DNA of 64,000 bases, taken from the IMG/VR virus record IMGVR_UViG_3300017913_001136, positions 20,908 through 84,907 of that record; one strand, written 5' to 3'. Made by a program: the position numbers and the translations under genes. Below, one piece after another: positions 1 to 20,201 of this stretch. The notes below the pieces were generated by a model. It was not told the DNA's origin. It made no database searches and saw only the letters and a list, made by a program, of their open reading frames with translations. Origin of the DNA: a virus (taxonomy: Duplodnaviria; Caudoviricetes). Within the stretch, counting starts at the first letter, position 1. Every line of letters begins with the position of its first letter.

Positions 1-1936
1 GTGCCGCAATACCTTTCCAAACATCACCCGAATCATGACCGTTCTCTGCCTCAAACTGAATACTGATACCATAACGAAGCGCAACTGATGGGGTTGATGA
101 ATCTAATGTAAATTCTGTTGGACCGCCAGCGGATTCAAAACCCTGTAGTGTAGCAAAGTTAGAATCAAATGACCATTGAATTTTATCGTGGTTCGAATGA
201 TCATCTGAGATTCTTACATAGTATGCTACATTTGAATCGCCTTTATAATGCCCTTTGAAGGTTGCATCGTTTAGACCAGATCCTGTGTGTACAGCAGAAG
301 CGATAGTATCACCGCCACCAACATATACAAACTGATCAGCAACTTCCAAACTTGCGACAGATGTTTTTGTTTCTGTTCCAAGAATGTTCAGATTACCAGC
401 GATTGTTACATTACCGTCAAACCTTGATGTGCCAATAGTTCTTAGAGTCTCAAAGATTTCTGTTCTAGGATTAACCTGAATACAACCGCCAACGTTGCCG
501 CCACTAGCAGAATCAGATACAAGCACAACACCAATCTCAAACGCAAAGTTTGGATGCGTTGGGTTAAATGAAACCAATTCACCAGCAGAGTCAGGAGAAA
601 CGTGTACAACAGCACCTACTGAGAATGAGGCAGTATTCAATCCACCAAACAGACCACGCATGGTAACGAAACCATATTCTTCTGTTGGGATATTGTGTGC
701 TGTTAGACCAATTGTTTCATATACAGTTTCAAAGGTATCTGATTTCGCCAAAGCGATAGTTGGGAAATCGTTTGCTGCACCAGTAATATAAACTGCTTTA
801 CCCTTATCGATCTGAGAACCAGTGTTGTTGTAAACCCTAACAATCTCGTCTTGAGCAATCTTAACATTGATACGATCGTTGGAATATGTGAGTGCATCTG
901 GACCTTGGAAGTAGAACAGATTCCCTTCTTCAAAGGTCGGTAGATTATCAGGAACATTGATATCCGTAAATGTAGTTTCTCTGAAGTTTATTTTATCTAC
1001 TTCACCGATAGAATCTACTGTGATACTTCTATGTGTAACTTCTGTATTATCACCACCAACATATTGATTGATAAACGCAGAATCGATAGTTCCTCTAATA
1101 TAATCAGAGTCTGCTCTTGCTCTTACATAAGCAGAGTCAATGACTGGTGTATTAGTAAAATTGTTATAATTTAAATAATACGTTCCTTCAAAACCATCGA
1201 GCGTATCAGCATTAGTATTCAATGCGTCTACAAAAGTCTTATCAACATCAATCGCAATAATGCTACTTATTGCTGCTGAGTCAAACGAACCAGAAACCGT
1301 TAATTGTCTTGACTGAATATACGCAGAGTCAATGATATTCGTAACATCTGCTGACTCGGCGATGCTACCTGCTGTCGTTTGATTGATGATTGTAATGTAG
1401 GATGAATCTACGATACTTCTTACGAAGTCTGAGTCTCTGAACCGATCACGTGCTTGAATATAGGCAGAGTCTACAATATTCGTTACGAATGAAGAGTCTA
1501 TAGAATTAGAAAGATAAGTAGCATTGACGGTATTGTTAATGATGTTAACAACATCACCTGAGTCGATATCTGCTCTTGCGTTAATATACGCAGAGTCAAT
1601 AATGCTGATAATAAATGCGGAATCTAAGACATCGCCAAAGTTGATAAGGTTATTGACGATGGTCGTGTCTAAACGATTATTGATATAATCTGAGTCGATT
1701 AATACAGTGACTTCACTTGAATCAAGTTGTGATTGGGCAACGGTTTCAATCTGGTCAACAAGGTTCTGTACAAGTGCAGAATCAATAAATGCTCTGATAT
1801 TATTAGAGTCATCTTTATAGTAAAGTTTACCATCGGCAAAGTTAATAGCGAGTTCGCCATATTGCAGATCGCTACTGTCAGGAATCCTTCCTGCTACCGA
1901 AGATCGTTTGAGTAATACTTTTGGTGTCGTTGCCAT
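1..1936 (-). CDS. Tail-fibre-like virion protein with D-S repeats (partial, runs off left edge; absent from ORF track)
   Basis: Manual translation from ATG at 1936: MATTPKVLLKRSSVAGRIPDSSDLQYGELAINFADGKLYYK (Mtd-N/hyaluronidase-like fibre N-terminus). Followed by repeated DSx(F/Y)(V/I) units and LDGFEGTYYLNYNNFTNTP. No stop seen in the part translated (to about 780). Confidence 0.8.
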   Translation of the reverse strand, partial: MATTPKVLLKRSSVAGRIPDSSDLQYGELAINFADGKLYYKDDSNNIRAFIDSALVQNLVDQIETVAQSQLDSSEVTVLIDSDYINNRLDTTIVNNLINFGDVLDSAFIISIIDSAYINARADIDSGDVVNIINNTVNATYLSNSIDSSFVTNIVDSAYIQARDRFRDSDFVRSIVDSSYITIINQTTAGSIAESADVTNIIDSAYIQSRQLTVSGSFDSAAISSIIAIDVDKTFVDALNTNADTLDGFEGTYYLNYNNFTNTPVIDSAYVRARADSDYIRGTIDSAFINQYVGGDNTEVTHRSITVDSIGEVDKINFRETTFTDINVPDNLPTFEEGNLFYFQGPDALTYSNDRINVKIAQDEIVRVYNNTGSQIDKGKAVYITGAANDFPTIALAKSDTFETVYETIGLTAHNIPTEEYGFVTMRGLFGGLNTASFSVGAVVHVSPDSAGELVSFNPTHPNFAFEIGVVLVSDSASGGNVGGCIQVNPRTEIFETLRTIGTSRFDGNVTIAGNLNILGTETKTSVASLEVADQFVYVGGGDTIASAVHTGSGLNDATFKGHYKGDSNVAYYVRISDDHSNHDKIQWSFDSNFATLQGFESAGGPTEFTLDSSTPSVALRYGISIQFEAENGHDSGDVWKGIAA

Positions 1937-1938
1937 TT

Positions 1939-3600
1939 CTAGTAAGTCCCGCAATCAATAGTTGCTATTTCTACATTCCCTGCTGTGACTAAAAAGTCTA
2001 CAGAGTCGAACTTAGCACCACCAATATTAGTGTCTGATGCTAGTTCTAATGATATGCTATATTCGTTCAATCCGTCATTATACAACACATCTATACCTTG
2101 CCCATCATTTAACAATGATGCTACTCGATCGTCTACACGTTCGTTTGTAAAGTATAAATTCGTTGTTCCTTCGCTAAGACTGTCAGTTGTTTTCGTTAAG
2201 AAACGAACATCAAAGTCTGAGTCTGCACGATAGGTTCTATAATATAAGTTGCTATCACCTTCCGGAAGTTGGTCGGTGTTTGCTAATCCTAAGTCGCTAT
2301 CAAAATTTGCTTTTGTATAAATTTGTTCAACATCAACGCTGATATCACCAGTCGTTGAGTTATAGGTAATGTCGCCCGAACCACTGAACAACGCACGAAT
2401 ATCATTTTCAAACAATGCATAATTAAACTGACCTGTTGAGTTGACATAAGTAAATGTGCCGAGTTCACCACCGTTCGTAGCAGATAATGCTGATCTTGCC
2501 CTAAGATCTGTATAGTAAAGATTATTGCCTTCTGTGAGATCGTCAGTAGTTTTCTGACCAAAGTCTGAATCAAATCCTTCATATTCACCGCTGAACCCAC
2601 CTTCTACTGTAAGTCCACCCTGTACAGTCAGATCGCTCTCGACTATCAGGTTTGGAGCATAAACGTCAATGTCTAAGTTCCAAGAGTGAGTTGGCGCATC
2701 GTAGTAAATATTTGCGTTCGCACCAGTGACGTGAATACCTGCCGAGTCTGCTTCGGTTCTATTAGTCGCACCAGAAGCGAGTGTGATATTTTTATCTTCT
2801 ACTGTAAGTGTCTGCGAGTTTACTGTAGTTGTTGTACCATCAACCTGTAGATCACCAGCGATGATAACTTTACCAGAGTTTCCGACAGGATTCGGGTCAA
2901 GAGTAAGATCGCCAGAGGTTGTGCTAATAGTATTGCCATCGACCTTGACATTATCTACTGTAAGACTTGCCAGTCCAAGAACATCAGAGTCAAGTGCGAC
3001 TTCTACCTTTACTCCATCGCTGGGTTGGTCAATACGTTTAGTGTTAGTGTTCCATGTACCACGAACTTGAATAGTTCCACCAGTGGTAACATTACCTGCA
3101 CCATCTTGGTTGACGTCAGCACTCACAAAGGCGACATCATAGTTATCAAAATAATTAAGTGTCAGCGCATCTTGCGGATCAGTAGGATCAACAACATCTT
3201 TGATCTGCGAAGTGCTTGCTGAGATGACCCCAGTAGTTGGGTCGAGAATTAGATTACCTGTTTCTGTAGATATTGTGTTTCCATCGATATCAATGTTATC
3301 AACGTGGAACTCAGAAACTTTATTATTTTCATCAGTAATAACCGCATGCTGAGGAACTGTTTGCCCCTGCGGTTGATCCATCATGTCAGTGTAATATTTA
3401 CCGCCAACGATATGGACTTCGTTCGCTATGCCATTTGTATTCCCACCTGCACCAATAAATAATCTATCACCACCAGCAGAGTCGCCTGTGGTGTAGGAGT
3501 AACCCTGTTCACCAGTTGCAAGAATCTTTTTGCTAGTGTTTAACGAACTGCTAATCAGCGGAGTACGATTGGAGGTTTTAATGAGAATTCTTGATGGCAT
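1939..3600 (-). CDS. Tail-fibre-like virion structural protein
   Basis: Mtd-N-like start (GEQGYSYTTG..DRLFIG), twice-repeated IDGNTIST-x-TGxLxLDP, KDVVDPTDPQDA motif, GDLQVDGTTTTVNS beta-repeat, repeated TDxLxEGxxNLYY units typical of marine T4-like fibres. Confidence 0.7.
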   Translation of the reverse strand: MPSRILIKTSNRTPLISSSLNTSKKILATGEQGYSYTTGDSAGGDRLFIGAGGNTNGIANEVHIVGGKYYTDMMDQPQGQTVPQHAVITDENNKVSEFHVDNIDIDGNTISTETGNLILDPTTGVISASTSQIKDVVDPTDPQDALTLNYFDNYDVAFVSADVNQDGAGNVTTGGTIQVRGTWNTNTKRIDQPSDGVKVEVALDSDVLGLASLTVDNVKVDGNTISTTSGDLTLDPNPVGNSGKVIIAGDLQVDGTTTTVNSQTLTVEDKNITLASGATNRTEADSAGIHVTGANANIYYDAPTHSWNLDIDVYAPNLIVESDLTVQGGLTVEGGFSGEYEGFDSDFGQKTTDDLTEGNNLYYTDLRARSALSATNGGELGTFTYVNSTGQFNYALFENDIRALFSGSGDITYNSTTGDISVDVEQIYTKANFDSDLGLANTDQLPEGDSNLYYRTYRADSDFDVRFLTKTTDSLSEGTTNLYFTNERVDDRVASLLNDGQGIDVLYNDGLNEYSISLELASDTNIGGAKFDSVDFLVTAGNVEIATIDCGTY

Positions 3601-3881
3601 TAGAAGTCTCCTCCTGCTGAGTCACGCAAGAAATATGCTTTCGCATCTCCTCCAGATATGATTAATCCGTCTGGGACGTTTGTATAATCAAACTTCTGAG
3701 TTGCGAAATTGAACTGAATCAAGTCGTGAGGAGTTGGACCAATCTCACCACTATCATTCAGTCCACTAATGTTTATGAGATCGCCAAGACCTTGTGCCTG
3801 TGCGCCAGTAACCTTTCGGACTGGTGTACCAATTATTATCTTGCGTATATGGGTCTGTACTGGGGGTGTTTCTTCTGCCAT
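3600..3881 (-). CDS. Small hypothetical virion-associated protein
   Basis: 93-aa ORF abutting neighbours in the late operon; shares the DSAGGD motif with the downstream fibre. Confidence 0.5.
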   Translation of the reverse strand: MAEETPPVQTHIRKIIIGTPVRKVTGAQAQGLGDLINISGLNDSGEIGPTPHDLIQFNFATQKFDYTNVPDGLIISGGDAKAYFLRDSAGGDF

Positions 3882-4232
3882 TTATGTCACCGATGGACTC
3901 ACTCGTATCTTTCCTTCAAGGATTCTCTCAATGATAGTTCTATTGTTACTATCTTCATAAGAGATCTCAACATCATAAACATAGTTGCCAACACGAAGTG
4001 CGTCAGTTTGTTGATTTGTCAAGGAAAGAGTTATGATACCATCGGATGCAGGAGTATTGATAGCAACAGCGAAATCTGTTGTATCATCTGAATCGGAGTT
4101 GTAGTTCCGTTTCATTTTAGCAGCAGCGTCGTAATTTGTGAGGTCTTTTTTGTTGCCTGAAGGGTCAACAAGTTCTAGTTGTACTGCAATGTCCGACCCT
4201 TTGTCGAACGTGAACTTTTCGTATTCTGCCAT
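3882..4232 (-). CDS. Conserved T4-like virion protein, BppU N-terminal-like beta-sandwich
   Basis: ITLSLTNQQTDAL..GNYVYDVEI...RILEGKIRVSPSVT pattern; late promoter upstream. Confidence 0.55.
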   Translation of the reverse strand: MAEYEKFTFDKGSDIAVQLELVDPSGNKKDLTNYDAAAKMKRNYNSDSDDTTDFAVAINTPASDGIITLSLTNQQTDALRVGNYVYDVEISYEDSNNRTIIERILEGKIRVSPSVT

Positions 4233-4275
4233 TTTCCCAATCTCGATGCTAAGTAACTCGACATGATATTACACT

Positions 4276-4283
4276 TATTTATA
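4276..4283 (-). promoter_or_regulatory. T4-type late promoter TATAAATA
   Basis: Exact TATAAATA on the minus strand 44 nt upstream of the 3882-4232 start. Confidence 0.75.
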
Positions 4284-4848
4284 AAAAAACAATACTGAAT
4301 CTAGTATAATTGTCGAACTTATCTTCAAAGGTATTGATGATTTTATTCTTAGCAGTCGTAACGCTGGCGACGAACTGATTTATATTTTCTTTACAGTTTA
4401 TGTGATCTTCTATCCCAAAGTAATCATTTGATTGTAGGATTACTACAGTCCCTTCTTTTTTCTTTTTAATCCAATTTTTAATTTCATCATCGGTCATATG
4501 TTCACAAGAACAACATACCAACACATTGTGATGGCGAGGGTTGTGTTTGTTTAGATCTATCGTTTTATATTTCACATTTGAAAAAAGTCTTAGATCAGCG
4601 CATTTAGGGTCTATATCAAACGACTCAACATTTTTAAAATCGTCAAGCATGTGCGCAAGTAATCCATGCCAACCTGCAGCGATGGATATTTTAGGATTCT
4701 CGTACATTAATAAATAAGTTTGTAAACGATCATATAAGAGTTCTTTATTTCTTATCTGATTTTCGTTCACAGCATTCGTGATATCTTTCACGAGGGATAT
4801 ATCGTCAGTCTTATGAATCGTCTTTAGAATTTTATTATAATCTATCAT
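4279..4848 (-). CDS. Class I SAM-dependent methyltransferase-like protein
   Basis: IAAGWHGLL (motif I-like), FDIDP (motif II), CSCEHM and LQSNDYF motifs. Confidence 0.6.
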   Translation of the reverse strand: MIDYNKILKTIHKTDDISLVKDITNAVNENQIRNKELLYDRLQTYLLMYENPKISIAAGWHGLLAHMLDDFKNVESFDIDPKCADLRLFSNVKYKTIDLNKHNPRHHNVLVCCSCEHMTDDEIKNWIKKKKEGTVVILQSNDYFGIEDHINCKENINQFVASVTTAKNKIINTFEDKFDNYTRFSIVFL

Positions 4849-5758
4849 GAAAAGAATAATTTACAGTTTGTATATTGATATCCCACTTGAGGAACTTGAT
4901 GAGCAACCTCCTCATTTCAATTCTACGATATCCAAAACACTTCACACCAAAGAAGAGTTTCAAAAATATTATGACTGGTTGGTTCAATCCCAAACAGCAT
5001 ACGCAAAAAAGAATCACACTGATTATATATTGTTCAAAGATGATGATCAATTCAAAGAATATAAGTCATGGTTTCTAAAAGAGTATCCTGAGATAACTTC
5101 ATACAACATAGTCAATTTCTACAAACTTCATTTGATGTATAAGTTGTTAGAAGAATATGACGAAGTTCTTTATATAGACTTTGATGTAATTCCCGTCAAA
5201 GAACTTAATTTCTTCGAACACTGGAATTTGAATAATGGTATATGTGTCTTATCTGGGATACAACCTTCACAAAGAGGGATATCGTTTAGTATGCCAGACA
5301 TATTAAAAGAAAAAGATAAGACCCACAGTAACAGATCACCGATAGCAAAATACTGGAACGCACATGCTATGTTAACAGAAAGCGATAACTCTGTAGAAGG
5401 ATGTGATGTCTTTAATACAGGAATCGTTGGTATCAACAGGAAGTTCGCAGACAAGTTGAGTTATTTTGAAAACTTTAACGAGACGATATCTTTCATGACC
5501 GAATTGAAAAAAAGAAACGATCTGATGTATCCTCCATATATTCAAAAACTATTTGGATACGATAATGAAACCATATGGGCATGGAAGGTATTATCTCAGA
5601 ATATATCGCATCAGAGTTTAGGTGAGGACTGGCACTATTTTATGGACAAGTGGGCATTTATTCCACAAAGTGCTATATTCGTTCATTGTATTAATAAAAA
5701 TTTTGAGTTTGTAAAGGGTTGGTATGAAGAGAATGATATTCTCGATCTTTTCAGATAA
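4847..5758 (+). CDS. GT-A fold glycosyltransferase-like protein (DxD)
   Basis: YDEVLYIDFDVI DxD motif, FNTGIV, DNETIW, C-terminal W...FVHCINK; paralogue of next gene. Confidence 0.65.
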   Translation: MKRIIYSLYIDIPLEELDEQPPHFNSTISKTLHTKEEFQKYYDWLVQSQTAYAKKNHTDYILFKDDDQFKEYKSWFLKEYPEITSYNIVNFYKLHLMYKLLEEYDEVLYIDFDVIPVKELNFFEHWNLNNGICVLSGIQPSQRGISFSMPDILKEKDKTHSNRSPIAKYWNAHAMLTESDNSVEGCDVFNTGIVGINRKFADKLSYFENFNETISFMTELKKRNDLMYPPYIQKLFGYDNETIWAWKVLSQNISHQSLGEDWHYFMDKWAFIPQSAIFVHCINKNFEFVKGWYEENDILDLFR

Positions 5759-6500
5759 TATCGAAAAAGATCATCAGTCAAGTAACGATTATAAGAAACA
5801 ACAGTTCACGAAGTATGCTCACCTCTTAGAAGAGAAACAAAAAGAGTATGCAAGAATATGTGGTGCTGAATATAATCTATTCAAAGTTGATACGGAAAGA
5901 TATGATCAAATACAATTTGATAAGATTCATATGTTTGACGAACTGGTATACAATTATGACGAAGTTCTATATCTTGACTTCGATGTAGTTCCGCAGAAAG
6001 AGGATAATTTTTTTGAACATCACGACTTAGATGCTGTTTGTGCATATTCCTTTGAAAGAAAACCAAGCAGTAGAGTTATAGAAAGAAAGATCCGAGAGGA
6101 TGATTTTGATGGGATGAATGTTTTCTCAAAAGGTTGTTGTAAACAATCTATGCTTTTGCTTCATGATATATCGAGTGACTACTCTATAATCAATACAGGA
6201 GTTCTCGGTATGAATAGAAGGTCGGTTGCAAACTTAAACTTCACTGATGATATTGTAGAGGCATGGACAACTTATTTTGAGTGTAGAAATGATAATATAT
6301 ATCCAGAAGAAATAAATAAATATTGGCGTGGCAATAACGAAGTATTCATCACATATATGATAGAGAAGAATAAGGTTAAATTCAACAATATCGGTATGCC
6401 ATGGAACTTTATGCTGGATGAATATGAACCAAATCCATCAGATGCTGCATATCTTTTACATTATGTCCATAAGGATTTTAAATTTGTGGAATCAAAATAA
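5724..6500 (+). CDS. GT-A fold glycosyltransferase-like protein (tandem paralogue)
   Basis: YDEVLYLDFDVV, INTGVL, NNEVF, WNF...LLHYVHK. Confidence 0.65.
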   Translation: MKRMIFSIFSDNIEKDHQSSNDYKKQQFTKYAHLLEEKQKEYARICGAEYNLFKVDTERYDQIQFDKIHMFDELVYNYDEVLYLDFDVVPQKEDNFFEHHDLDAVCAYSFERKPSSRVIERKIREDDFDGMNVFSKGCCKQSMLLLHDISSDYSIINTGVLGMNRRSVANLNFTDDIVEAWTTYFECRNDNIYPEEINKYWRGNNEVFITYMIEKNKVKFNNIGMPWNFMLDEYEPNPSDAAYLLHYVHKDFKFVESK

Positions 6501-7131
6501 AATAGTAATTGATGCATCTAACACTTGTACATTAGAATGTCCTAGATGTGCGAGACAGTTGTATCCAGAGTATGGATTACCCAAAGCAGGGTTTGAACAA
6601 TCTGGCAATCTTTCGGTTGAAAATTTTAAAAAACTTCTTAACAAATTTAACAACTTCACTTTTTGTGGGCAAGTAAGTGACCCAATTATGAATCCAAATT
6701 TAATTGAGATGCTTCAATTAATATACTCGGAAGGAAAAGATGTATCAGTAATGACTGCTGCTACAGTGAAGAATAGAAAAGAAGATTGGTATCGTAAAGC
6801 ATTTGAAGCACACCCAAAGGCAAGATGGGTGTTTGGAATTGATGGTCTACCAGAAGAAAGTAATTTGTACAGGATAAATCAAGACGGAGAGTTCTTGTAC
6901 GAGATGATGAAACTCTGTGCGAAGATTTGTAAGGTTAGTGAATGGCAATATATTGTTTTTTCATATAACGAGGATAATATAGAAACAGCAATGGCCATGG
7001 CGAAAGAAAATAAAATCCGTTTCTCCTTAAACTTTAGTTCAAGATGGAGTGGAGAAAAAGATCCATACAAACCAACGATTGATAAGTATCAATTTAAACG
7101 ACCAGATGAATGGAAAACACTTTGGAAGTAG
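6484..7131 (+). CDS. Radical SAM protein (core domain only)
   Basis: CTLECPRC CxxxCxxC motif, FCGQVSDP (GGEP-like), FGIDG, WQYIVFSYNE. Probable TTG start at 6484 (ORF track opens at 6418). Confidence 0.85.
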   Translation: MWNQNKIVIDASNTCTLECPRCARQLYPEYGLPKAGFEQSGNLSVENFKKLLNKFNNFTFCGQVSDPIMNPNLIEMLQLIYSEGKDVSVMTAATVKNRKEDWYRKAFEAHPKARWVFGIDGLPEESNLYRINQDGEFLYEMMKLCAKICKVSEWQYIVFSYNEDNIETAMAMAKENKIRFSLNFSSRWSGEKDPYKPTIDKYQFKRPDEWKTLWK

Positions 7132-7529
7132 ATGATATCAAAAAGAATAAAGTTCTAAGTCCAAAGTGCATCAACGATGGAGAAAGGTTTCCATCATATA
7201 GTTGCTCTGGATGGTTAACTCCCTGTTGTTGGGTTGATGGGTATTGGGCAGAAAAAGAGTTTCCTCAGTTTTTCGATGAAGAATTAAAACTTGATAATGT
7301 GGATGACGTTGATGAAATATTATTAAGTGAGGTGTGGATAGATTTCTTCAAGACATTAACTGAAACTCCAGAAAAAGCACCAAATACATGTTGGCGATAT
7401 TGTGGAGTATTTAACTCAACAGTAGAAAAGGCAGAAGAGATAAAGAAAGATTTAAATATAGCACCGTCAAGCGTGTGGGATCAAAAATGTGCACACGGTG
7501 TAAGAATAAAAGTTCTGAGTGATAAATGA
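7110..7529 (+). CDS. Stand-alone SPASM/Twitch-like Fe-S cluster protein
   Basis: PKC...SGWLTPCCW and CWRYCG cysteine pattern, directly after the radical SAM gene. Confidence 0.6.
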   Translation: MENTLEVDDIKKNKVLSPKCINDGERFPSYSCSGWLTPCCWVDGYWAEKEFPQFFDEELKLDNVDDVDEILLSEVWIDFFKTLTETPEKAPNTCWRYCGVFNSTVEKAEEIKKDLNIAPSSVWDQKCAHGVRIKVLSDK

Positions 7530-8083
7530 GAATAATATGTGTTCGCACTGGTGATAAGTATGACCAGTGGTATGAAGATAATCTAAAATATATGATTGAC
7601 AAGTATTCTGGTCTTGAATATGATTCGTATGAAGTGATTCGTGATGATGTATACGAACTATCTGTAGCAAATAAATTGTTAATGTTTGATCGTTACAGAG
7701 AAGGGCAAAACCTCTTCTTTGATCTCGACGTTTGCATTAAAGGCGATTGTAATAGATTTTTGTACGAAAGTCTGCACGTCTTACGAGCATGGTGGAGACC
7801 AGATTACCATACCCCATTGAACTCTTCGATTATATCTTGGCAAGGTGATTATTCTCACATATACAAAGAGTGGGAAAGTGATCCCGAATATTATATGTTC
7901 AAATATTACAAAGGAATTGATCAGTTCTTATATGAACAGTTCAATCCTACTGCGATATATTGGGGGTTCAATTCTTTACAGACTATAGAAGAAGAGGATC
8001 CCAGATATGCTGTGACCCTCTTTAATCAAAGATATGAATACATGAAGCGAAACGGATGGTGGAGTAAATACTTTATTTCTTAA
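7526..8083 (+). CDS. Glycosyltransferase-like protein (DxD)
   Basis: CVRTGDKY N-terminus, LFFDLDV DxD, NSSIISW, GIDQFL. Confidence 0.6.
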   Translation: MRIICVRTGDKYDQWYEDNLKYMIDKYSGLEYDSYEVIRDDVYELSVANKLLMFDRYREGQNLFFDLDVCIKGDCNRFLYESLHVLRAWWRPDYHTPLNSSIISWQGDYSHIYKEWESDPEYYMFKYYKGIDQFLYEQFNPTAIYWGFNSLQTIEEEDPRYAVTLFNQRYEYMKRNGWWSKYFIS

Positions 8084-11208: not shown

Positions 11209-11411
11209 TACTTCAACCTATCCAGTATTTCCCTCATCATATCTCTTAGTTCACCAACCTGATATTTGATATCTTCGATCTCCTGCTTTTGACTCTTTCG
11301 TAATTTCTTCGAAAGTTTTGCTTTCTCGATCGAAGTTATATCAACATTCAATATAGCATTATTATTTAAATCACGAACAAGAGTGTTGTGATTCTCTACC
11401 TTCGCTTTCAT
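11208..11411 (-). CDS. Conserved small T4-like hypothetical protein with C-terminal coiled coil
   Basis: KVENH..LVRD....AILN motif, following the large structural gene. Confidence 0.6.
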   Translation of the reverse strand: MKAKVENHNTLVRDLNNNAILNVDITSIEKAKLSKKLRKSQKQEIEDIKYQVGELRDMMREILDRLK

Positions 11412-14400
11412 TATACCGCCAGTGCAATAACTCTTAGATCTTTGAATGATGGAACAAGAGCACTGCTCCTAGACTTCATTACGATCTTCAAAATAAATTT
11501 ATCAAACGGATCAACAAAACCTACTGTGTCACCAATAAGATAGGTGTAATCCCTGAACACTGCTGGGTTCTCGTCACTCTGGATTTGCTCTTCCGGAGAA
11601 ATTTCTACCCACTCAAGATCGTCAAAGTTCTGATCTTCGGTTGCGACTTTATAATACAAGTCAAAGTCAGCGACAGAAGGTTTGTTCGCTGAAAGAAGAA
11701 CTTTCACACCAACAGAAGGGGATTCAAGGATAACTGGTTTCACGATATGTTTCGCCAGATGTGAACCACCGTTCGGATCAGTTTCGTCAGCATAATCAAT
11801 AGGAGTGTTTCTATTATTGTTCAACAATACGCCAGGAGAACCTGCTGAATCTTGGAAGTCAATATTATTATGGAACATCCACAACCCAGTTCTCTGCAGA
11901 TCAACAACAGGTGAAAGATCACTATCGGTTGTAGTCAAGTTCAATTTGATAGTTGCTGACTTATCACCGCTCATAGAGTTGGTTTCACGCTCGGAGTTCG
12001 CAAGAACCTTTGGAGTGAGGAAGTAGTTATCTTCGTTCGCTATGATTCTTGTATATGTTCCTGCTTTAGTGTACTGTGTTTCGTTACCTGCATGAGACTT
12101 ACCCTCAGTCAGTTTTGCGTCAACAGTAATATCAGTTCTCTTTGGTATCAATGTTTGAAGGCGAGGACTCAAGATCTCGTAATGAATATTCTGAGTTGCC
12201 AGCGCAGATAGACCACCAAAAGTTGATGAGTCAGTTGCCGAATCGTCAGAAGTAATTGTATAATGATCTTCGTCTACAGCGATAATAGTTCTATTGTTGC
12301 TAATACTTGCACCAGTCATACCATTACCGAATGAACCTGTACTATCTAAACCACTGATTCTTACTGTATCACCAGCAATAAATCCATGATTCGGTTGATT
12401 CACTGTTACAACATTAGAACCTGAATCTACTTCAAATGGGTTCGCAGGAAGCAGGTCAAGAGGAACAGCAGGGTTCTCTAGGATAACTGTTGCCGAAGTG
12501 TTAGGGAACTTCGCTTGAATCAGTTCGAACTTCATGTCTTTGTTCTGAGCAGGATTCCATGTAGAACCATTCTGAGATAAGAACAATGAACCTAGTGTTG
12601 GTTGTTTTGCAATCTTTCTTGCAGTTGAACCTACTTCAAACTGTTCTGTTTCAGCAATGTATACATTATAATCTACTGACTGAGCAAGAAGAACAATAGC
12701 ATAAGTGGTTAAACCACTCAGGAATACTGGTTCATCAAATTCAAACTCAGTTGCTGAAGTAGCATCGTTTGAAGTTGTAACAGAACTTGGTTCTAAGAAC
12801 TTCACTGCTCCTGGAACAGGGATACTATCGGGAACGCCAGCAACCATTGGACGAATCTGTAATTGTACAGGAATATTCGCATCTTTCGTTTTAAAGAAAA
12901 TTTTGACTTTAGTAATGAATACACCGTTTGGTTTATTCACGAAAAATGATTGCGCCAAAGGATCATTTGGATTTGGTTCTGGTGGATTATCATCACCTCC
13001 TGGAGGAGAAGGTGGATTAATCCTAGAACGACCAGTTACTACAGAACGAATTGAAATTTGGCGAGTCGCCTTTACTGTACGATCTACAGTTTCGAGTACA
13101 CCGTTTGCATCAAAGTAACCTTTAGAAAATGATGTAGCATATTCTGCATCACCACCAGTAACATCCATCAATTCAAATGCACGTGTACCAGTTCTAAACC
13201 TGATCGCATCAGTATTAGGAACAAAGAAGTTACCTTCAATCTTACCTGCTGCATTTGAAGTAAGAATTCTGTCAGCAGCATTTGGTGCGTCTGGGTGAGT
13301 TGTTGCTCGGTTATGGCGATTGCCGACTGCTGTAGTGCTTGAACCATGACGTGTGAATGAAGCAGTTGCATCTACCCAATCTGCTACCGATACGCCATCA
13401 AAGAATGGATAGTGGCGAGTATTCGGTTTCAGACCTTGTACACGGAACGACATTTTCACTGAACGCATAAACGGAATCAGCGCAACATCTACAACCTTTT
13501 CGTCAATCACTTCACGAATAGTTTGTTCAGATACAACACGATTAACTCTCGTGACTCTGAAACCACCTTCTGCAGTAGTTCTTGCACCTGTGACATTAGT
13601 ACCAACTGAGATACCACCCCAGTTCCAACCCCAGTTACCAAATAACCGATTGGATTGATTATCAAGACGAGTACCACCGCTCACAACTTTCGTATGGCGA
13701 ACCTTTGTTTCTTTCCAGTGATCTGATGAAGGTGAAAGATCGGTATAACCTTCGTTTGTGATAACGGCAAACGGATTGATGTTTTCAGTTCCGGATGCAA
13801 GATCTTGATTAATGTATGAGGCATGGTTATATGCCATCATTACATTATCACCTTTTAGAATAGTGTTTGTGGATTGAACTGAATCGTAAAGAAGTCTCAG
13901 TTCTTCTTCTGAAAAGATAGGTCTCAAGATTTTATTTTGTGGATCAACAGATGCTCGATATTCGATATTGTTGACATCTGATGACTGATGGTCAATAAAG
14001 TTATCAACCAAGAACCCAGACTTTGTACGATCTAATCCACCAGAGTCTAAGACTGAGAAGTTTTTCAGATCGATTTCTAGTAGACTCAAAGCAGTGACTT
14101 CTTCAAGATTATCAAGACGATCTTCCATACGAGAAAGATCCTTCATTGTAAACCCTTTTGCCTCTACTTTACGCATCTCCATATCACTGTCATGAACTGA
14201 TCCTGGACGCATCTTGATTTGATACAGTTCTAATGCACCTTCTGGTGTTTCAGGGAACTGTGGATTGAAACTTGAGTTTCCTTCAAGATACTGCAGAGGA
14301 TTAGTCGCAATCAATTTATCGTAACGAGGAAGATAATAAGTGACGTCACCAGTGACCAATGAAGTATTAGTCGGCAAAGGATTATATCTTGCAGTTGCTG

Positions 14401-16501
14401 CTGAAAAGTTTGCACCTGTATCATCTTTACGAGAGCGGAAATCGAGATGATCTTTGAGGTCGTAAAGTTGACCTGATTTATCACGATATCTTGGAATATC
14501 TTTGTATGGTGTAGGATATGATGTAGGAGCAAAGAAGTCACCAGAAGAACCGTGCGCATAATAATTAAAGCGAACGAACACATTACCTCCAGGAGCAACC
14601 CTGTTACCTTTCAGAACCAAACGACCTACATCATAGAAGTTATCTCTCTGACCGTTATCAAGAATGAATCTTGCTGAGATATCTTGCCCATCAGAGTCAG
14701 CGATAGTTACACGAGTCACGTTTACAATATCTGCTTTACTCAGTGAGATATATGGCGCACCAGTTGAAGGTGTAGTTACAGTCGCTGTGACTGTGGCATT
14801 AGTAAGAGTCTTTGTTCTTGCTGTGCCTTCTACTGATTTTTTGTAAAGAATCTCAAGTGTAGTTGATGCAGGTCCACCAGATATAGATGCCCCAGTACCG
14901 CCACCAGTTAAGGTAATCGTTGGTGAAATTAATGCACCTGTATCGTTTCTTGAGATTACCCAATCGGTCGTATCAACATATCTTTCAGTACCAGATAGAG
15001 TTGGCAAAGATACGTTACCCGAACCATCAGTCGCTCTTGTGTCTCTACGAAGAACATTGTAAGATACGTTCGCCAGTCCCTGTACACGTGGGTGAGGATA
15101 TTCAAACAAAAGAATATTATTCTGCTTATCCTTAAGAACAGCATTTGAATTTTCTAGGATTGGGTTGGCATAGTTGGTCGCATCTTTACCAAGAGAGCGA
15201 ACTAATCTAAAGTCCTTACCAGCATTCATGCTGATATCCATCAGATAGTAACGAATATTTGGACCATCTTCTTCTACAGATTTAATTCTTGCTGTGCCGA
15301 TAGTGGTTCCGCTGTTACGATATCCGTCTTTCAGGTTGTACTGTTCGAACTCGTCAACATTAGGAACACCGAGTGAACTATCACAAAGAACATAATTACC
15401 GATACCAATAGAAACAACTTCGTTAGTCACTTCTTCTGTATCATCTGCTTTATTTACATCTAGACTTCCGTAACCAGTATATTCGTTTCTGTATCCATTC
15501 AGATAAACAAGTCCAGGAGAAACTCTCAAACTGAATTTGTTAGCAGAGTCTGTTGGGTGCGTCTCATAATTAATCTTAAATGGTTTTTTAATAAAGTCGC
15601 CATTGATTTCTTTAATACGAGTTGCACTAAAATCTTCGATCTTATTATAAGAGTCATCAGCAGATACAACTTCGATAACCTTACCACGCTGGATTTTAGC
15701 ATAGAATACAAAGATCTCGTCTGAGTCTACTTCTGACTCAAGAGCAAGAGTCATATCAATGCGAAGTCTATCCGCTCCAGGAGCAGTCAGGTTAGGATTC
15801 GCACCTTGATTATCATATAATCTATTGTCATCATCAACGGTAAAGATTCTTTGTTGTACACGGAAACCTACATTGATATTCGGAACACTAGAATATTTGT
15901 CAAGAATAATGCTTTGTGCGTCTGCTTGTACAAAGTGACCCTGCGTAAAGAACACCCCAGTATTGGTAGATGCACGTGTACCTGTACCAACAGCAGGATT
16001 TGCGTTTGTATTTGTTAATTGTACTGTAAGAGTTTTAACATTGTTTGTAAGATTTTCGCCAGGAGTAAATCTAATCGGAGTAGTTGCTCCAGCAACACCT
16101 GAAGTTGTGTTTGTATATTTAACGAATAGAGTAGCAGGATCAGATCCGGAAGCAGCAACGACTTCTAGAACTTCCGCTTGAATGCTTGAAGTTGCTCCTG
16201 TGATTGTAACCCCTTCGAGGGAAGTGATTACTGAAGGAAGGGTGTTAGATGATGTATCAAGTTTGATAAACTCGTACTTGTTATCAACGGTAATACCGCC
16301 ACCAACTACCGCAGCACCTTCTTTAAAAATGTTTGTACCAAAACGCTCAATCTCTTTTTGGATAATGGTTTGCATCTGTGTAAGTTCACGTGCCTGCAAA
16401 ACCTTTCCGCTGTTAAAGAGAATTCTATGATAGTGATCACTATCTCGGAAGTCGTCTTTGTAGGTGGTTTGAAATAATGTTTTGGTAAGATTATTTGCCA
16501 T
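11411..16501 (-). CDS. Large virion structural protein (DUF4815-like)
   Basis: DDF....YHRILFNSGKVLQARELTQMQTIIQ N-terminus, TGFLVDNF, PLAQSFFV, W...Q..DMKF; C-terminal VPSFKDLRVIALAV. Confidence 0.8.
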   Translation of the reverse strand: MANNLTKTLFQTTYKDDFRDSDHYHRILFNSGKVLQARELTQMQTIIQKEIERFGTNIFKEGAAVVGGGITVDNKYEFIKLDTSSNTLPSVITSLEGVTITGATSSIQAEVLEVVAASGSDPATLFVKYTNTTSGVAGATTPIRFTPGENLTNNVKTLTVQLTNTNANPAVGTGTRASTNTGVFFTQGHFVQADAQSIILDKYSSVPNINVGFRVQQRIFTVDDDNRLYDNQGANPNLTAPGADRLRIDMTLALESEVDSDEIFVFYAKIQRGKVIEVVSADDSYNKIEDFSATRIKEINGDFIKKPFKINYETHPTDSANKFSLRVSPGLVYLNGYRNEYTGYGSLDVNKADDTEEVTNEVVSIGIGNYVLCDSSLGVPNVDEFEQYNLKDGYRNSGTTIGTARIKSVEEDGPNIRYYLMDISMNAGKDFRLVRSLGKDATNYANPILENSNAVLKDKQNNILLFEYPHPRVQGLANVSYNVLRRDTRATDGSGNVSLPTLSGTERYVDTTDWVISRNDTGALISPTITLTGGGTGASISGGPASTTLEILYKKSVEGTARTKTLTNATVTATVTTPSTGAPYISLSKADIVNVTRVTIADSDGQDISARFILDNGQRDNFYDVGRLVLKGNRVAPGGNVFVRFNYYAHGSSGDFFAPTSYPTPYKDIPRYRDKSGQLYDLKDHLDFRSRKDDTGANFSAATARYNPLPTNTSLVTGDVTYYLPRYDKLIATNPLQYLEGNSSFNPQFPETPEGALELYQIKMRPGSVHDSDMEMRKVEAKGFTMKDLSRMEDRLDNLEEVTALSLLEIDLKNFSVLDSGGLDRTKSGFLVDNFIDHQSSDVNNIEYRASVDPQNKILRPIFSEEELRLLYDSVQSTNTILKGDNVMMAYNHASYINQDLASGTENINPFAVITNEGYTDLSPSSDHWKETKVRHTKVVSGGTRLDNQSNRLFGNWGWNWGGISVGTNVTGARTTAEGGFRVTRVNRVVSEQTIREVIDEKVVDVALIPFMRSVKMSFRVQGLKPNTRHYPFFDGVSVADWVDATASFTRHGSSTTAVGNRHNRATTHPDAPNAADRILTSNAAGKIEGNFFVPNTDAIRFRTGTRAFELMDVTGGDAEYATSFSKGYFDANGVLETVDRTVKATRQISIRSVVTGRSRINPPSPPGGDDNPPEPNPNDPLAQSFFVNKPNGVFITKVKIFFKTKDANIPVQLQIRPMVAGVPDSIPVPGAVKFLEPSSVTTSNDATSATEFEFDEPVFLSGLTTYAIVLLAQSVDYNVYIAETEQFEVGSTARKIAKQPTLGSLFLSQNGSTWNPAQNKDMKFELIQAKFPNTSATVILENPAVPLDLLPANPFEVDSGSNVVTVNQPNHGFIAGDTVRISGLDSTGSFGNGMTGASISNNRTIIAVDEDHYTITSDDSATDSSTFGGLSALATQNIHYEILSPRLQTLIPKRTDITVDAKLTEGKSHAGNETQYTKAGTYTRIIANEDNYFLTPKVLANSERETNSMSGDKSATIKLNLTTTDSDLSPVVDLQRTGLWMFHNNIDFQDSAGSPGVLLNNNRNTPIDYADETDPNGGSHLAKHIVKPVILESPSVGVKVLLSANKPSVADFDLYYKVATEDQNFDDLEWVEISPEEQIQSDENPAVFRDYTYLIGDTVGFVDPFDKFILKIVMKSRSSALVPSFKDLRVIALAV

Positions 16502-16511: not shown

Positions 16512-17861
16512 TTAGAACGATATAATTATTTTTACGTCTTCAGTTTGTGTCGCATCTCTTAGCACTGCTGCACGATTATCTATATACAGAATATCGCCTG
16601 TTTCTACATCGTACTTCGGCGAGATCAATGCTGAATCGATAACACCATCACCAGCACCATTAGTTTCTTGAACAACTTCACCGTCCTGGAAGGCGATATG
16701 CCCTGTACTGTCAGTTTGATGGTAGAAAATTTCATTAGAGTCTATGTGGTCAACGAAAGCAACCGCACCTGAAGTCTGACCCTCAATTTTCTTATCTTTT
16801 GTAAATGCTGTAACAATACTGCTCAGAGTCATTTTGTCGAGCGCATTACCAGTCAAATCAGTAAAGTATGCGCCATTCTGTTGACGTGGATCTCTCCACA
16901 ACGAAACCTGACGGAAGTCCTGACCAACAATTAAATCACTATCATCTGGATCTAACTGTGAGTGGAACATAACAGCAGTAGACCTTAGATCATCTCTAGC
17001 ATCACGACCGATACCAGAATCAGCAGTAACAACCGCACGTGCTGTTGCTCCTGCACCACCACCACCAGTGATGGTAATAACAGGAGTATTGAAATATCCT
17101 GATCCATGACTTAGAGTAGAACTATCTGGATCCATAGTAATATGTGTCACAATACCAAGTGCTGAATCAATGAATGCTGATGCCGCAGCACCACTACCTG
17201 ACTGACCTGTGATTGATACTGTAGGACGTGATGTATAACCTGAACCACCATCTGTCAACACAATACTAGAAATCATTGCTTGCTTAGTATTGTTCTGAAC
17301 TGATTCGTGACGCAACTCAATGCCAGTAGAGTTGGAGTCAGTTACACCCTGCTTTTTAACAGGCATAAAGTTCGATGACATAAATTGGTTTGCATCAGAT
17401 GCTGATATAGTGTACAAGAACTTCCAAACATAACCATCACCAAGACGGAATGAGTTATCATTTGAAGAAGTCGGTTCTACAGTAGAAGTAACAATATTCC
17501 CGTCATCATCTCTACCTACTTCAAGGCAAACATAAACCTGATTGTTGTCTGTCTTTACATAGTATGGATTGGTCGGATATCCTGCTACCAGATCATCGTA
17601 TGCTGAGTAGATTGTACCGCTAATCCAGTTGTTACGAGGAACAACCTGTGAAACTGCCTGAACCTTTTTGACAGAAATAAGTTGATCACGAACTTGACGA
17701 ATATCGAGAATGGTATCTTCTGGAACAGGAACATGGTCATTTGAGTCCCACTGTTCTGGTCTACCGATACCCACATAATAATTATTGCTATTCAGGTTGA
17801 AACCGTCGAAGAAGTTTCTCGCCAATATCTTTCTGAGTGCTCTTGTAATAATTGCTGGCAT
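16512..17861 (-). CDS. gp8: Baseplate wedge subunit gp8
   Basis: YYVGIGRPEQW, VYVCL, DGYVWKFLYTIS, FMPV, DFRQVSL, GDILYIDNR..EDVKIIISF. Confidence 0.85.
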   Translation of the reverse strand: MPAIITRALRKILARNFFDGFNLNSNNYYVGIGRPEQWDSNDHVPVPEDTILDIRQVRDQLISVKKVQAVSQVVPRNNWISGTIYSAYDDLVAGYPTNPYYVKTDNNQVYVCLEVGRDDDGNIVTSTVEPTSSNDNSFRLGDGYVWKFLYTISASDANQFMSSNFMPVKKQGVTDSNSTGIELRHESVQNNTKQAMISSIVLTDGGSGYTSRPTVSITGQSGSGAAASAFIDSALGIVTHITMDPDSSTLSHGSGYFNTPVITITGGGGAGATARAVVTADSGIGRDARDDLRSTAVMFHSQLDPDDSDLIVGQDFRQVSLWRDPRQQNGAYFTDLTGNALDKMTLSSIVTAFTKDKKIEGQTSGAVAFVDHIDSNEIFYHQTDSTGHIAFQDGEVVQETNGAGDGVIDSALISPKYDVETGDILYIDNRAAVLRDATQTEDVKIIISF

Positions 17862-17873
17862 TTTATTTTCCTA

Positions 17874-20201
17874 TTATACTGAATCTGTCATTGGTATCCA
17901 ATCGTATCCGTTATAGAATACGAGGTATGGTTTTCCTGCTGATCTGCTATCTGGGTTGAAGTTTACCCCATCGGCATGTGCAATCTGACCTGCTCGTTTA
18001 CCAAGTCCACCTGTGCTTGCTGAATCTGGTTCTGCATCCATTGGTTTTAAGTAAAGAACATCATTGAACTGTCTTACTGAACCAACCGCATAACCAGCAA
18101 AACCATCTTCGCCTTGTCCTACATAGTAAGTTCTACCTGTCATATCATTGTGGAAGAATCTTCCTGGATCGTCAGCAAGTGAAATATCGCTATCAACACC
18201 CCACTGAGTATTTGATGCGTCGTACGTGTATATATCGCCACCAAAGTTGTCAGTTTCTGTACCATTGAAGTGGATCAGTTTCACTGGAGTTGTTGGGGTG
18301 AAAGTATTATTTGAGAACGTTGCAGCATCCTGACTTTGAGCAACATAACCATATCGAGTTTTACCAACAAACCTTTGTGTTCTCGAATCGGATGACAAGT
18401 CAAAGGTAAGTTCTGTTCCTGTATCTAGAGTTGTACTTGGTTGCTGAGAAGTTGTAAAGGTCAGATCTTTACCACGCTTCTCTACAAGAACTTTAGTCTG
18501 ACCTGTAACATCCCAGTTGTTATTTGCGCCAGAAACGGTGATAGTGCTCGCTCCATCAACGAGGACTGCCTGATCTGATTGACCGTAGTTATAAACAAGA
18601 CCATATGTCGAAGTGGATAGTACACCGCCACCTGTTCTGTATACTGTAAGTGAATATTCTGAATCTACTGAAGGTCTATCGTATCCTACAAGCAAACCAA
18701 TAAAATCATCGTCAGCAACAGTAGAAGAAAGTGTTGCTTCATGGTCGAAATCTTTAAACTTATCCTTAGAAACAAAACCAATAAATGTGCTACTGTTTAC
18801 TGTACTGCTGATAGTATCAGTTCCAGAGTTATATGACCAAGAGTTTGCTTCTGACTGATTAGCAGGGAATGTTCCTGAAGTATCGTGTGATATCTTTCTC
18901 CAAGTATTGAAGATATCAGAGTTAGTTGGTCTATCTAATTTACCTTCTTCCATATCAGCAGAATCATCAAAGAACTTATCGCTGACCTCTAAGATTGTTT
19001 TCGTTGATAGAGTATTAGTACCATCACCCGAAATAATAGTCAGGTCACCAGCATTACCTGCTGGAACAAAACGATTGAACGCACTATCGTCTAACTCTTT
19101 TGCTGAATCTTGCGTGACCGTACCGAAAGCAACGATCCGACCATCAACCTGTGATTGCGTAAGACCGCCACCCAAGTTGATTTCTGAACCGCCATTATCT
19201 TCTACTCTAATTCCTGTACCACCACCAGTTGCTTTTAGTCTTACACCACCGAGATTAATAGTAGAACCTGAAAGGTATAAGTCACGCCATTTGAAGTTTG
19301 AATCACCAAGATCAAATGCGCTATCTACTGCTGGAATGAAAGAACTCTGTAAAGAAAGAACAGGATATCCGTTCACTCCACCTAATCTTAATCTAGCACT
19401 ATCATTCGTATCTTGGTTAGTAATTTTGAAAAGTTTTACATTTTCTAACAGGAGTGTATTCGTACCACCAGGAGCATATGTAAATTTAGCACTATCAATA
19501 TGAAGTTCTCTATCAATAAAAGCATCCCGAAACCCTTGTGTCGCCGTTCCGAGGTTGATATTATTTGCTCCTGGATTTAAACTGAAATTTAAATCGCCAA
19601 AGTTTGATTCGAGAATGCTTTGAACTTTACCAGAGTCTACAATACCAAGAGCAAGAACATAAGACTGGTTTACTATCCTGTCAATTTCATATCCAACATG
19701 AGTTGAATCAAGACCTGCTGGGTCTTGTCTTGCCTGTACATATGCTGCATCTACAAGTCCAATAACACCAAGAGAATCAATAGCATGCTCATTGATAAGA
19801 GCAATTGTTTGTGTAGAATCTAAGTGAGTTCCAATAAGATCTAGAACACCTTGTGAATCAAACGCAGCACCAACATCTGTTAGCAGGGCAAGTCTACCGC
19901 TAGAGTCTGGCAATGTAATGATATTATCTTTTGATGGTTCTTGTGCTTTTAAATATGTTTCGTTATTATCAGCAGGAACTGAATTAGCACTGTCCTCACC
20001 AATAAACACAACCGCACGTTGGTCAAACGAGATTCCTTCGAGGTTTAATCCACCTGCAGAATCCGCCACCAGTAATTGCATCGCTGCAACATCTTGATAC
20101 AGTTCTGCGAAGTTATCATTTATTTTTTGACCGCCAGAGCGGAGGGTGTCCCCTGTTCCGTCATTACCTGCGGATCCTATAAAGATTTCTTTTCTTGCCA
20201 T
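17874..20201 (-). CDS. gp9/gp10-like baseplate wedge/tail-fibre connector with long C-terminal extension
   Basis: IFIGSAGNDGTGDTLRSGGQKINDNFAELY is the gp9/gp10 N-terminal signature. Confidence 0.75.
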   Translation of the reverse strand: MARKEIFIGSAGNDGTGDTLRSGGQKINDNFAELYQDVAAMQLLVADSAGGLNLEGISFDQRAVVFIGEDSANSVPADNNETYLKAQEPSKDNIITLPDSSGRLALLTDVGAAFDSQGVLDLIGTHLDSTQTIALINEHAIDSLGVIGLVDAAYVQARQDPAGLDSTHVGYEIDRIVNQSYVLALGIVDSGKVQSILESNFGDLNFSLNPGANNINLGTATQGFRDAFIDRELHIDSAKFTYAPGGTNTLLLENVKLFKITNQDTNDSARLRLGGVNGYPVLSLQSSFIPAVDSAFDLGDSNFKWRDLYLSGSTINLGGVRLKATGGGTGIRVEDNGGSEINLGGGLTQSQVDGRIVAFGTVTQDSAKELDDSAFNRFVPAGNAGDLTIISGDGTNTLSTKTILEVSDKFFDDSADMEEGKLDRPTNSDIFNTWRKISHDTSGTFPANQSEANSWSYNSGTDTISSTVNSSTFIGFVSKDKFKDFDHEATLSSTVADDDFIGLLVGYDRPSVDSEYSLTVYRTGGGVLSTSTYGLVYNYGQSDQAVLVDGASTITVSGANNNWDVTGQTKVLVEKRGKDLTFTTSQQPSTTLDTGTELTFDLSSDSRTQRFVGKTRYGYVAQSQDAATFSNNTFTPTTPVKLIHFNGTETDNFGGDIYTYDASNTQWGVDSDISLADDPGRFFHNDMTGRTYYVGQGEDGFAGYAVGSVRQFNDVLYLKPMDAEPDSASTGGLGKRAGQIAHADGVNFNPDSRSAGKPYLVFYNGYDWIPMTDSV

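Follow-up and report, generated by a model that had tools for sequence, protein, structure and literature searches.

The host recognition cluster and its Asp-Ser-rich proteins

We studied a stretch of 64,000 nucleotides (the window) that corresponds to bases 20908-84907 of the 84.9-kb IMG/VR contig IMGVR_UViG_3300017913_001136, labelled G000 here and estimated to be 45% complete. Its source is an uncultured marine T4-like myophage. The fibres and several baseplate proteins of this phage carry an excess of the dipeptide Asp-Ser (DS), which is the subject of this analysis. Among named phages, its closest relative is Phage C48C1 (Kyanoviridae; 39% identity in gp6), followed at ~30% by Synechococcus phage S-PM2, Methylophilales phage Melnitz and Pelagibacter phage HTVC008M. 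A megablast search with 20 kb of the window against phages returned zero matches. Pfam and PHROGs confirm gp8, a gp9/10-like connector, gp6, the C-terminal part of gp5 (gp5-C), gp32, a class II ribonucleotide reductase (RNR) and a VrlC/DUF4815 protein in the window. Upstream of the window, G000 carries the genes for the sheath, the large terminase, gp15, a gp14-like protein, gp13 and three large structural proteins.

The passages on the host recognition cluster (HRC) of pelagimyophages and cyanomyophages in Zaragoza-Solas et al. 2020 (PMC7029224) describe a variable island that extends from VrlC to gp14, in which tail-fibre genes are mixed with GT8-type glycosyltransferases (GTs) and radical SAM cassettes. 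In our contig, a giant VrlC-like DUF4815 baseplate protein (11411-16501, minus strand; PF16075, E 3e-51) marks one edge of such an island. Fibres, GT-A genes and a radical SAM gene lie in 1-11208, and gp14-, gp15- and gp13-like genes lie upstream of the window. The known HRC thus has its counterpart in the stretch that runs from VrlC past window base 1 to gp14. Unlike our phage, the HRC isolate HTVC008M exhibits neither DS excess nor GT8/GT25 matches, and the HRC passages that were retrieved contain no Asp-Ser signature in fibres.

The expected number of DS dipeptides was calculated from composition, with 2000 shuffles per protein. Four proteins, all encoded on the minus strand, have a 3- to 5-fold excess (z 5.8-8.3), and none of the 2000 shuffles of each reaches the observed count. 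The most DS-dense protein of the window, p309 (10279-11208; 309 aa), has no family match and contains 19 DS against 4.2 expected (z 8.3). Its paralogue p228 (9589-10275; 228 aa), a fibre-like protein that hhalign links to the p309 family with a probability of 99.9%, has 11 against 2.2 (z 6.7). A gp9/gp10-like baseplate-to-fibre connector with a fibre domain (17874-20201; 775 aa; PF07880 over residues 3-43) has 21 against 7.3 (z 5.8). The fourth protein is a gp37-like distal long tail fibre, whose N-terminal 651 of 1921 aa lie in the window (2-1954; the gene spans G000 17096-22861). This part has 24 DS against 6.0 expected (z 8.2), 14 of them in the first 225 aa, and the full protein has 66 against 17. 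The excess is about twofold in two further minus-strand products, the baseplate wedge protein gp8 (16512-17861; 449 aa; PF09215, phrog_438, E 1e-76), with 9 against 4.2 (p 0.017), and a mildly DS-rich 553-aa fibre or structural protein (1939-3600; phrog_15769 and phrog_697, ‘structural protein’), with 9 against 4.7 (p 0.04). Upstream of the window, a 329-aa neck-region protein has 19 against 3.3 expected, and the gp14-like protein (407 aa) has 14 against 4.1.

Capsid-proximal, inner baseplate, sheath and non-structural proteins show no DS enrichment. DS counts are low in RNR (2 in 738 aa), gp32 (1 in 301), gp6 (3 in 612) and gp5-C (2 in 670), control proteins whose identities were checked with Pfam, and the 58 other open reading frames (ORFs) of the window together have 41 DS against 58.6 expected. 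In the same shuffled controls, SD, DT, ES and NS are not enriched; SD occurs 5 and 2 times in the two paralogues, and DT counts in the DS-rich proteins range from 0 to 5 and show no excess. Chance and composition are ruled out by the shuffles as causes of the DS excess. A first-pass annotation of this DNA had counted DS, SD and the controls by hand and argued that composition alone was insufficient; all its counts were reproduced exactly, and the argument holds. It had also described the motif as restricted to outer virion proteins. This is true of the fibrous proteins, gp8 and the gp9/10-like connector, but the VrlC-like protein, which is large and exposed, is only weakly enriched (16 against 10.2), and the sheath is not (5 against 3.1). 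Therefore, the signal belongs to the fibrous proteins together with gp8 and the gp9/10-like connector, and not to everything exposed. We also considered whether non-virion proteins specifically avoid DS. Their ratio is 0.70, but the unrelated Roseobacter phage CRP-6 gives 0.66, and ES and DT show a comparable deficit; the dip therefore lacks specificity, and the idea was rejected.

The DS sites are conserved in several of these proteins. We found 75 homologues of p309. In an alignment of 24 of them (52% mean column identity), the pairs D8S9, D104S105, D194S195, D215S216 and D235S236 are invariant, and several further DS sites are at least 90% conserved. The DS columns of p228 are likewise conserved in its homologue alignment. 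The two paralogues have a common N-terminal domain of ~35 residues (RK..I....I..W...N.MSDY.GDLD), which may dock both to the baseplate. A weak lead from ESM features (0.87) relates p309/p228 to the gp9/10 N-terminal domain, but hhalign did not confirm it against the neighbouring gp9/10-like protein. In gp8, which is not a repeat protein, the nine DS sites are clade-specific, and seven of them are conserved down to 59% identity; outgroups have NE, VV, PG, KG, ES and similar residues at these positions. The first-pass remark that the motif occurs even in gp8 is thus borne out.

The 1921-aa fibre begins with a region (residues 7-53) assigned to the PHROG ‘long tail fiber distal subunit’ that is 50-58% identical to T4-type gp37 N-termini, and it has a DS-rich stalk of 9-residue units. 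Its C-terminal half (G000 17096-20907) contains about six ~85-residue domains with Gly-rich linkers between them, and each domain has DS at two fixed places (FTADSGQT and AADSGD). The central domain (window 2-1000, residues 337-651) shares 41% identity with a tail-fibre protein from the 44.9-kb phage CRP-6, which does not belong to the T4-like phages and whose fibre has no DS stalk (DS 1 against 3.8 expected). This similarity suggests that fibre modules are exchanged between unrelated phage groups.

Sequence searches of the PDB with p309 and the fibre stalk gave nothing significant, and tblastn against 50,697 isolate phage records found no match to the stalk (residues 26-320) or to p309; matches to isolates are confined to the fibre's gp37-like N-terminus and central domain. 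The DS units are absent from Pfam, and a literature search with motif strings found no paper describing the motif.

Anatomy and predicted structure of the DS motif

The 180 DS sites that we compared show that DS is not a free dipeptide, but part of a frame, hydrophobic-D-S-(A/D/G/S/N)-(Y/F)-(I/V). Position -1 is typically I, V, A or L (I/V/A/L/F in 108 of the 180 sites). Position +2, after the Ser, is A in 67 sites, D in 28, G in 23, S in 20 and N in 15. Y or F stands at +3, and +4 is I, V or L in 78 sites (35, 31 and 12, respectively). Further downstream, there are more hydrophobic residues at +7/+8 and often a new D at +9, and the commonest distance from one DS to the next is 9 residues (21 occurrences). 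The paralogues p309 and p228 use a related unit, hydrophobic-x-hydrophobic-DS-A-x-hydrophobic, which recurs every 5-16 residues. In 86 non-redundant homologues aligned on the unit frame, D is found in 96% of cases when S is present. S itself is found in 79% and is otherwise replaced by A, K or Q; T accounts for 1%. The alignment indicates that the Ser is not structurally indispensable, yet is kept beyond the normal need of a first helical position.

Selection for DS acts on the protein, because the Ser codons after Asp are mixed like those of the background and because the DS columns are invariant in homologues. A signal in the DNA or an effect of composition is conceivable in principle. GAY-TCN creates GANTC, a CcrM/HinfI-type site, and the density of GANTC is 6.4 per kb in 1-20201 against 3.5-3.9 per kb in the remaining window; alternatively, the proteins could merely be rich in Asp and Ser. 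However, of the serines after Asp, 61 use TCN and 32 use AGY, and these 32 of 93 make no GANTC. Their share matches that of the background (135 TCN and 54 AGY, i.e., 54 of 189). This codon mix refutes GANTC as a DNA-level signal. Moreover, shuffles that keep composition never reach the counts of the strongest proteins, SD shows no enrichment, and at ~50% identity the amino acids of the DS columns are still conserved. We therefore regard an artefact of this kind as extremely improbable.

The frame resembles a helix N-cap with a hydrophobic staple: the capping residue is Asp, hydrophobic residues stand just before it and four positions beyond it, and predicted helices start right after the Asp. 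In the usual N-cap motif, the cap is S, T, D or N and there is no strong rule for the next residue. By contrast, D is followed by S in ~80% of the units here, and there are hundreds of repeats in one clade.

We modelled residues 1-320 of the fibre with AlphaFold2 (AF2), using an alignment of 26 sequences. The predicted local distance difference test score (pLDDT) is 70-89 for residues 11-70, with a mean of 57. Ten of the 16 helices in the model begin exactly at the Ser of a DS, which none of 20000 permutations matches (p < 5e-5), and an Asp likewise comes before the start of three of the remaining six helices (D-T, D-K and an offset D-S-D). Since the helices start at the following Ser, the Asp is the likely N-cap, and the hydrophobic residues at -1 and +4 agree with a hydrophobic staple. 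The cap geometry thus comes from a fibre model of moderate confidence. When this model was compared with the PDB by Foldseek, nothing matched at E <= 0.001. For p309, the AF2 monomer was uninformative (pLDDT 37), and an ESM Atlas model was equally poor, with uninformative nearest clusters.

The first-pass annotation had favoured a modification site over repeat expansion, and had named structural caps as an observation that would speak against this. Most DS pairs, however, lie in a repeated unit with a 9-residue period and at predicted helix starts, and caps are what the fibre model suggests.

Distribution of DS richness and the sugar genes

Homologues of the stalk region number 516 (358-1140 aa), and the median DS count is 3.3 times the expectation among the 120 listed. 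All genomic contexts of DS-rich fibres that we examined are fragments of large T4-like genomes. In HTVC008M, Melnitz and S-PM2, the DS ratios of baseplate and fibre proteins are near 1, and the same holds for all large proteins of phage P-SSM2. Among gp8 orthologues, 51 of 84 are DS-rich. On a quick maximum-likelihood tree of gp8, they group in a single large clade, within which some lineages are DS-poor (the C48C1 group, L160 and L146); a few DS-rich sequences fall outside this clade, and at least ~10 state changes are required. Judging from this tree, DS richness marks one large uncultured clade.

C48C1 is DS-poor apart from one protein. Its 1568-aa baseplate-fibre connector (L002 22804-27510; OQ984149.1 126305-131011) has about ten tandem 88-residue repeats, and each copy contains several helix-like segments that start with DS (DS 31 against 17.7, SD 28).

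Two groups of sugar genes occur in the window. A larger glycan cluster (42515-51436, minus strand), recognised by Pfam matches, includes an unknown 208-aa protein (42515-43141), a GT8-like gene (43134-43808) and a pair of GT25 genes (43798-45165), which together form what we call the GT core. The cluster also encodes three GT8-like paralogues (45667-46530, 47459-48127 and 50324-51091), whose homologue in the related genome G009 passes the GT8 cut-off, as well as a sulfotransferase, an NAD epimerase/dehydratase and three methyltransferases identified by Pfam. No flippase, polymerase or initiating-transferase family was found among the cluster ORFs scanned against Pfam.

The smaller group is a cassette within the fibre region. 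Two paralogous DxD GT-A-like glycosyltransferases of 303 and 258 aa (4847-6500, plus strand) run antisense to the fibre genes. They have a DFDV motif, match GT8 weakly without reaching the curated cut-off (E 1e-4 and 6e-4), and are conserved in the close relatives L004, L007, L009, L011 and G006. A 189-aa protein (4279-4848, minus strand) has no family match, and its homologues adjoin GT genes in L004, L007, L009, L011, L013, G006 and G014. The 189-aa gene and the first GT gene overlap back to back at their starts (4847/4848) and leave no intergenic space. Because the 189-aa homologue is co-oriented with the GT genes in L004, L007, L009 and L011, a local inversion appears to have occurred in our phage. 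Next on the plus strand is a radical SAM enzyme followed by a 139-aa Cys-rich ORF with seven Cys (6418-7529). The enzyme has CxxxCxxC at residues 37-44, matches phrog_21308 ‘radical SAM’ (E 1e-12) and weakly resembles the radical SAM/SPASM maturases TIGR04317 and TIGR04053. SPASM-type maturases usually act on peptides or proteins. The Cys-rich ORF may be a split SPASM-like part, and fused forms of 340-363 aa occur at the same place in L004 and L005. The last member, GTc (7526-8083, plus strand), is a 185-aa DxD (FFDLDV) GT-A-like protein with no Pfam or PDB match. Its profile picks up 10 of 27 related records, frequently with more than one copy each, making it the most widely kept member of the cassette. 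In relatives, the cassette occupies the same place with varying content, and GTc and the 189-aa protein are its most constant parts. The GC content of 4001-8000 is 0.34, compared to 0.38-0.42 on both flanks, which is consistent with separate acquisition.

Three GT-A-like genes in the fibre module and six GT-like ORFs in the 42.5-51 kb cluster make nine ORFs with at least some indication of a GT. The first-pass estimate of about ten GT-like genes plus sugar-decorating enzymes comes close to this, with about nine to eleven GT-A-like genes alongside the epimerase, sulfotransferase and methyltransferases. Glycos_transf_1, Glycos_transf_2 and Maf-like families had no match on the contigs tested. 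On the 84.9-kb contig, there was no match to PF00534 (Glycos_transf_1), and none at E <= 0.01 to PF01973 (MptE-like/Maf), although the contig is itself 45% complete. The cassette GT profiles have no significant match in the PDB. Since no solved relative was found beyond LgtC, at E 5.4 only, the acceptor of these GTs cannot be read from homology.

Two small genes of 93 and 116 aa lie between the 553-aa fibre gene and the cassette (3600-4232, minus strand; phrog_1084 and phrog_3304, E 8e-23 and 6e-15) and are 75-82% identical in relatives. The second resembles a tail-fibre assembly chaperone (PHROG ‘L-shaped tail fiber protein assembly’). Directly upstream of the two genes is a copy of the T4-type late-promoter consensus TATAAATA (4276-4283). 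This consensus occurs 11 times in the window against 4.7 expected, and most copies are in the correct orientation 20-150 nt upstream of gene starts. Other copies are at 10425-10432, 20233-20240, 23580-23587, 32158-32165, 32659-32666, 37517-37524, 51539-51546 and 56742-56749. One copy lies 110 nt upstream of the first glycan-cluster gene (51098-51436), but it is kept in G006 and not in G009 or G014, i.e., in one of three relatives, and so late expression of the cluster from this promoter was dropped as evidence.

The GT core tracks DS richness across genomes. Homologues of all its genes are present in the DS-rich G000, G005, G006, G009 (87% complete), G014 (84%), G015 and G019, and the core is absent from the DS-poor G016 (81%), G029 (100%), HTVC008M, Melnitz and S-PM2. 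C48C1, which is complete, DS-poor and nested in the DS-rich clade, lacks the GT25 pair and the 43134-like gene but has retained the epimerase, the 208-aa gene and one GT8-like paralogue. Other comparisons are less favourable. The fibre-region cassette is absent from G009, whose fibres are DS-rich nonetheless (46 against 16.5 and 23 against 7.7), so the cassette is not required for DS richness. P-SSM2 has many GTs, including an unrelated GT25, yet has no DS excess; thus, sugar clusters in general do not predict DS. The DS-rich fragments G010 (37% complete; fibre 53 against 16.9) and G012 (31%) have no homologue of the cluster GT genes and no GT8, GT25 or GT2 match anywhere, even though they cover the usual cluster site between the baseplate genes and RNR; G012 has only a weak homologue of the 189-aa cassette protein. 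The GT cluster of these two phages could lie in the missing two thirds of their genomes. Co-variation of DS with GT genes, which the first-pass annotation had proposed as a check, is therefore seen for the core of the larger cluster in all informative genomes, but not for the fibre-region cassette or in these two fragments. In these genomes, the association of core and DS has no informative exception, but comes from essentially one clade and one nested loss. Many other genes must share the presence pattern of the core, and clade structure confounds the association.

Structural units, glycosylation and other explanations

The motif is fixed, periodic, conserved, selected at the protein level and restricted to one clade. 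We favour the explanation that the excess of DS reflects small structural units that would build trimeric fibres and fibre-like baseplate proteins, and we assign it a probability of roughly 0.5. In each unit, a hydrophobic residue would precede an Asp that caps the N-terminus of a short helix. Ser would take the first helical position, the aromatic residue at +3 and Ile/Val at +4 would provide the hydrophobic-staple geometry, and the next unit would begin 9 residues on. The related units of p309 and p228 would make up these two proteins. The units may have been multiplied by duplication and swapped between HRC fibre genes, so that many fibrous proteins of one phage clade would share them. The near-obligatory Asp, the replaceable Ser and the lack of DT enrichment support this explanation, by which the DS pattern could be accounted for without chemical modification.

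Several observations fit these structural units poorly. A Ser at the first helical position is normally weakly constrained, and 79% Ser with almost no Thr exceeds the demand of a cap. In globular gp8, DS was gained at single sites and kept to 59% identity, which repeat expansion cannot explain. DS richness co-occurs with the GT25/GT8-like core in every informative genome, and the DS-poor, nested C48C1 lacks the GT25 pair. In addition, the structural case depends on one model with a mean pLDDT of 57, and the model of p309 failed.

The first-pass annotation had proposed that the phage O-glycosylates the DS serines. This idea is plausible, although we consider it clearly less than even in probability. 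The Ser of DS would be a putative modification tag, and cytoplasmic GT-A enzymes of the phage would glycosylate exposed DS serines before or during assembly. The main candidates come from the 42.5-51 kb cluster, namely its GT25 pair and its GT8-like genes, possibly with the fibre-region GTs, and the epimerase, sulfotransferase and methyltransferases would tailor the sugar. Glycosylation is compatible with the structural units, in that the cap could be a scaffold for display. It would account for the distribution of the GT core, including the loss of the GT25 pair and the 43134-like gene from C48C1 while other cluster genes are kept, for the gain and subsequent conservation of the gp8 sites, and for the strong retention of Ser, not Thr, at a usually tolerant position. 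The lack of flippase, polymerase and initiating-transferase families among the scanned cluster ORFs also favours it.

There are two precedents. SdgA and SdgB add N-acetylglucosamine to Ser of staphylococcal Ser-Asp repeat adhesins and so protect them from proteolysis (PMC3794999). As would be the case here, cytoplasmic GTs modify Ser beside Asp in repeated segments of surface proteins. However, their substrates are low-complexity (SD)n runs, whereas our DS pairs lie in discrete structured units and SD is not enriched. The Sdg enzymes are of the Glycos_transf_1 type, which has no match on this contig, and are not GT-A enzymes like the GT8/GT25-like proteins; no Maf-like family was found either. 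In mycobacteriophages, virions are glycosylated by phage-encoded GTs (Freeman et al. 2023, cited in PMC12801897). There, too, the GT genes are near structural genes and virion proteins are the proposed acceptors; this proximity also exists in our phage. The mycobacteriophage work, published in Cell Host Microbe, reportedly found sugars on capsid and tail-tube proteins, whereas here only the fibres and outer baseplate carry the motif, as far as sequence tells.

The comparison with the Bacteroidota O-glycosylation sequon, D-(S/T)-(A/I/L/V/M/T), which the first-pass annotation had drawn, fails because DT is not enriched. DSA, the commonest form here (67 of 180), does fit the sequon, but Thr is hardly used in our frame (1%). 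The third residue is an allowed one in 84 of 180 DS sites (47%), the rest being mostly D, G, S or N. The Bacteroidota system is periplasmic and acts on exported acceptors. Virion proteins assemble in the cytoplasm, and so host periplasmic glycosylation should not reach them; moreover, there is no evidence here of a Bacteroidota host.

Glycosylation is also weakened by the possibility that the association with the GT core reflects shared ancestry, by G010 and G012, by the DS-rich G009 without the cassette, by P-SSM2 and by the finding that non-virion proteins do not specifically avoid DS. The classical role of GT8 and GT25 enzymes is in building the lipo-oligosaccharide core. In the relevant passages of PMC7029224, the GTs of HRCs are read as modifiers of the host O-chain, and host-surface modification, as put forward there and in PMC12801897, is an equally good home for the enzymes. 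A different role for DS would be to bind metal (e.g., Ca2+) or to form inter-chain hydrogen-bond rings near the three-fold axis, stabilising the fibres in seawater. The near-invariant Asp, further acidic or polar flanks (D at +2 in 28 of 180 sites; DPDSS and DPDDSD in gp8) and the confinement of the motif to fibrous proteins are in line with this role, as is the fact that trimeric phage fibres, such as those of T4, commonly hold axial ions. However, Ala, the commonest third residue, is not a ligand, and the hydrophobic flanks suggest that Asp and Ser face solvent at the start of a helix, so we consider this role unlikely.

Marine T4-like myophages rank with the ocean's most abundant viruses. 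No substrate is known to have been demonstrated for the GT clusters in their host-recognition regions, whose role is only conjectured in PMC7029224 and PMC12801897. If DS is only structural, the units would represent an undescribed but ordinary fibre repeat family that is useful for fibre annotation. More tentatively, the tail fibres and outer baseplate of this clade might be coated with glycans that the phage makes itself, possibly methylated or sulfated, and that the GT25/GT8-like core attaches to the Ser of the DS cap. Both the motif and the small set of candidate enzymes are well defined. If it occurs, such glycosylation would follow a sequon-like code, the first for virions of Gram-negative or marine phages, and would give the GT clusters a function. 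The target of the sugar clusters in marine myophages would in that case be the virion and not host lipopolysaccharide or DNA, with a bearing on host range, protease resistance and the stickiness of particles in seawater.

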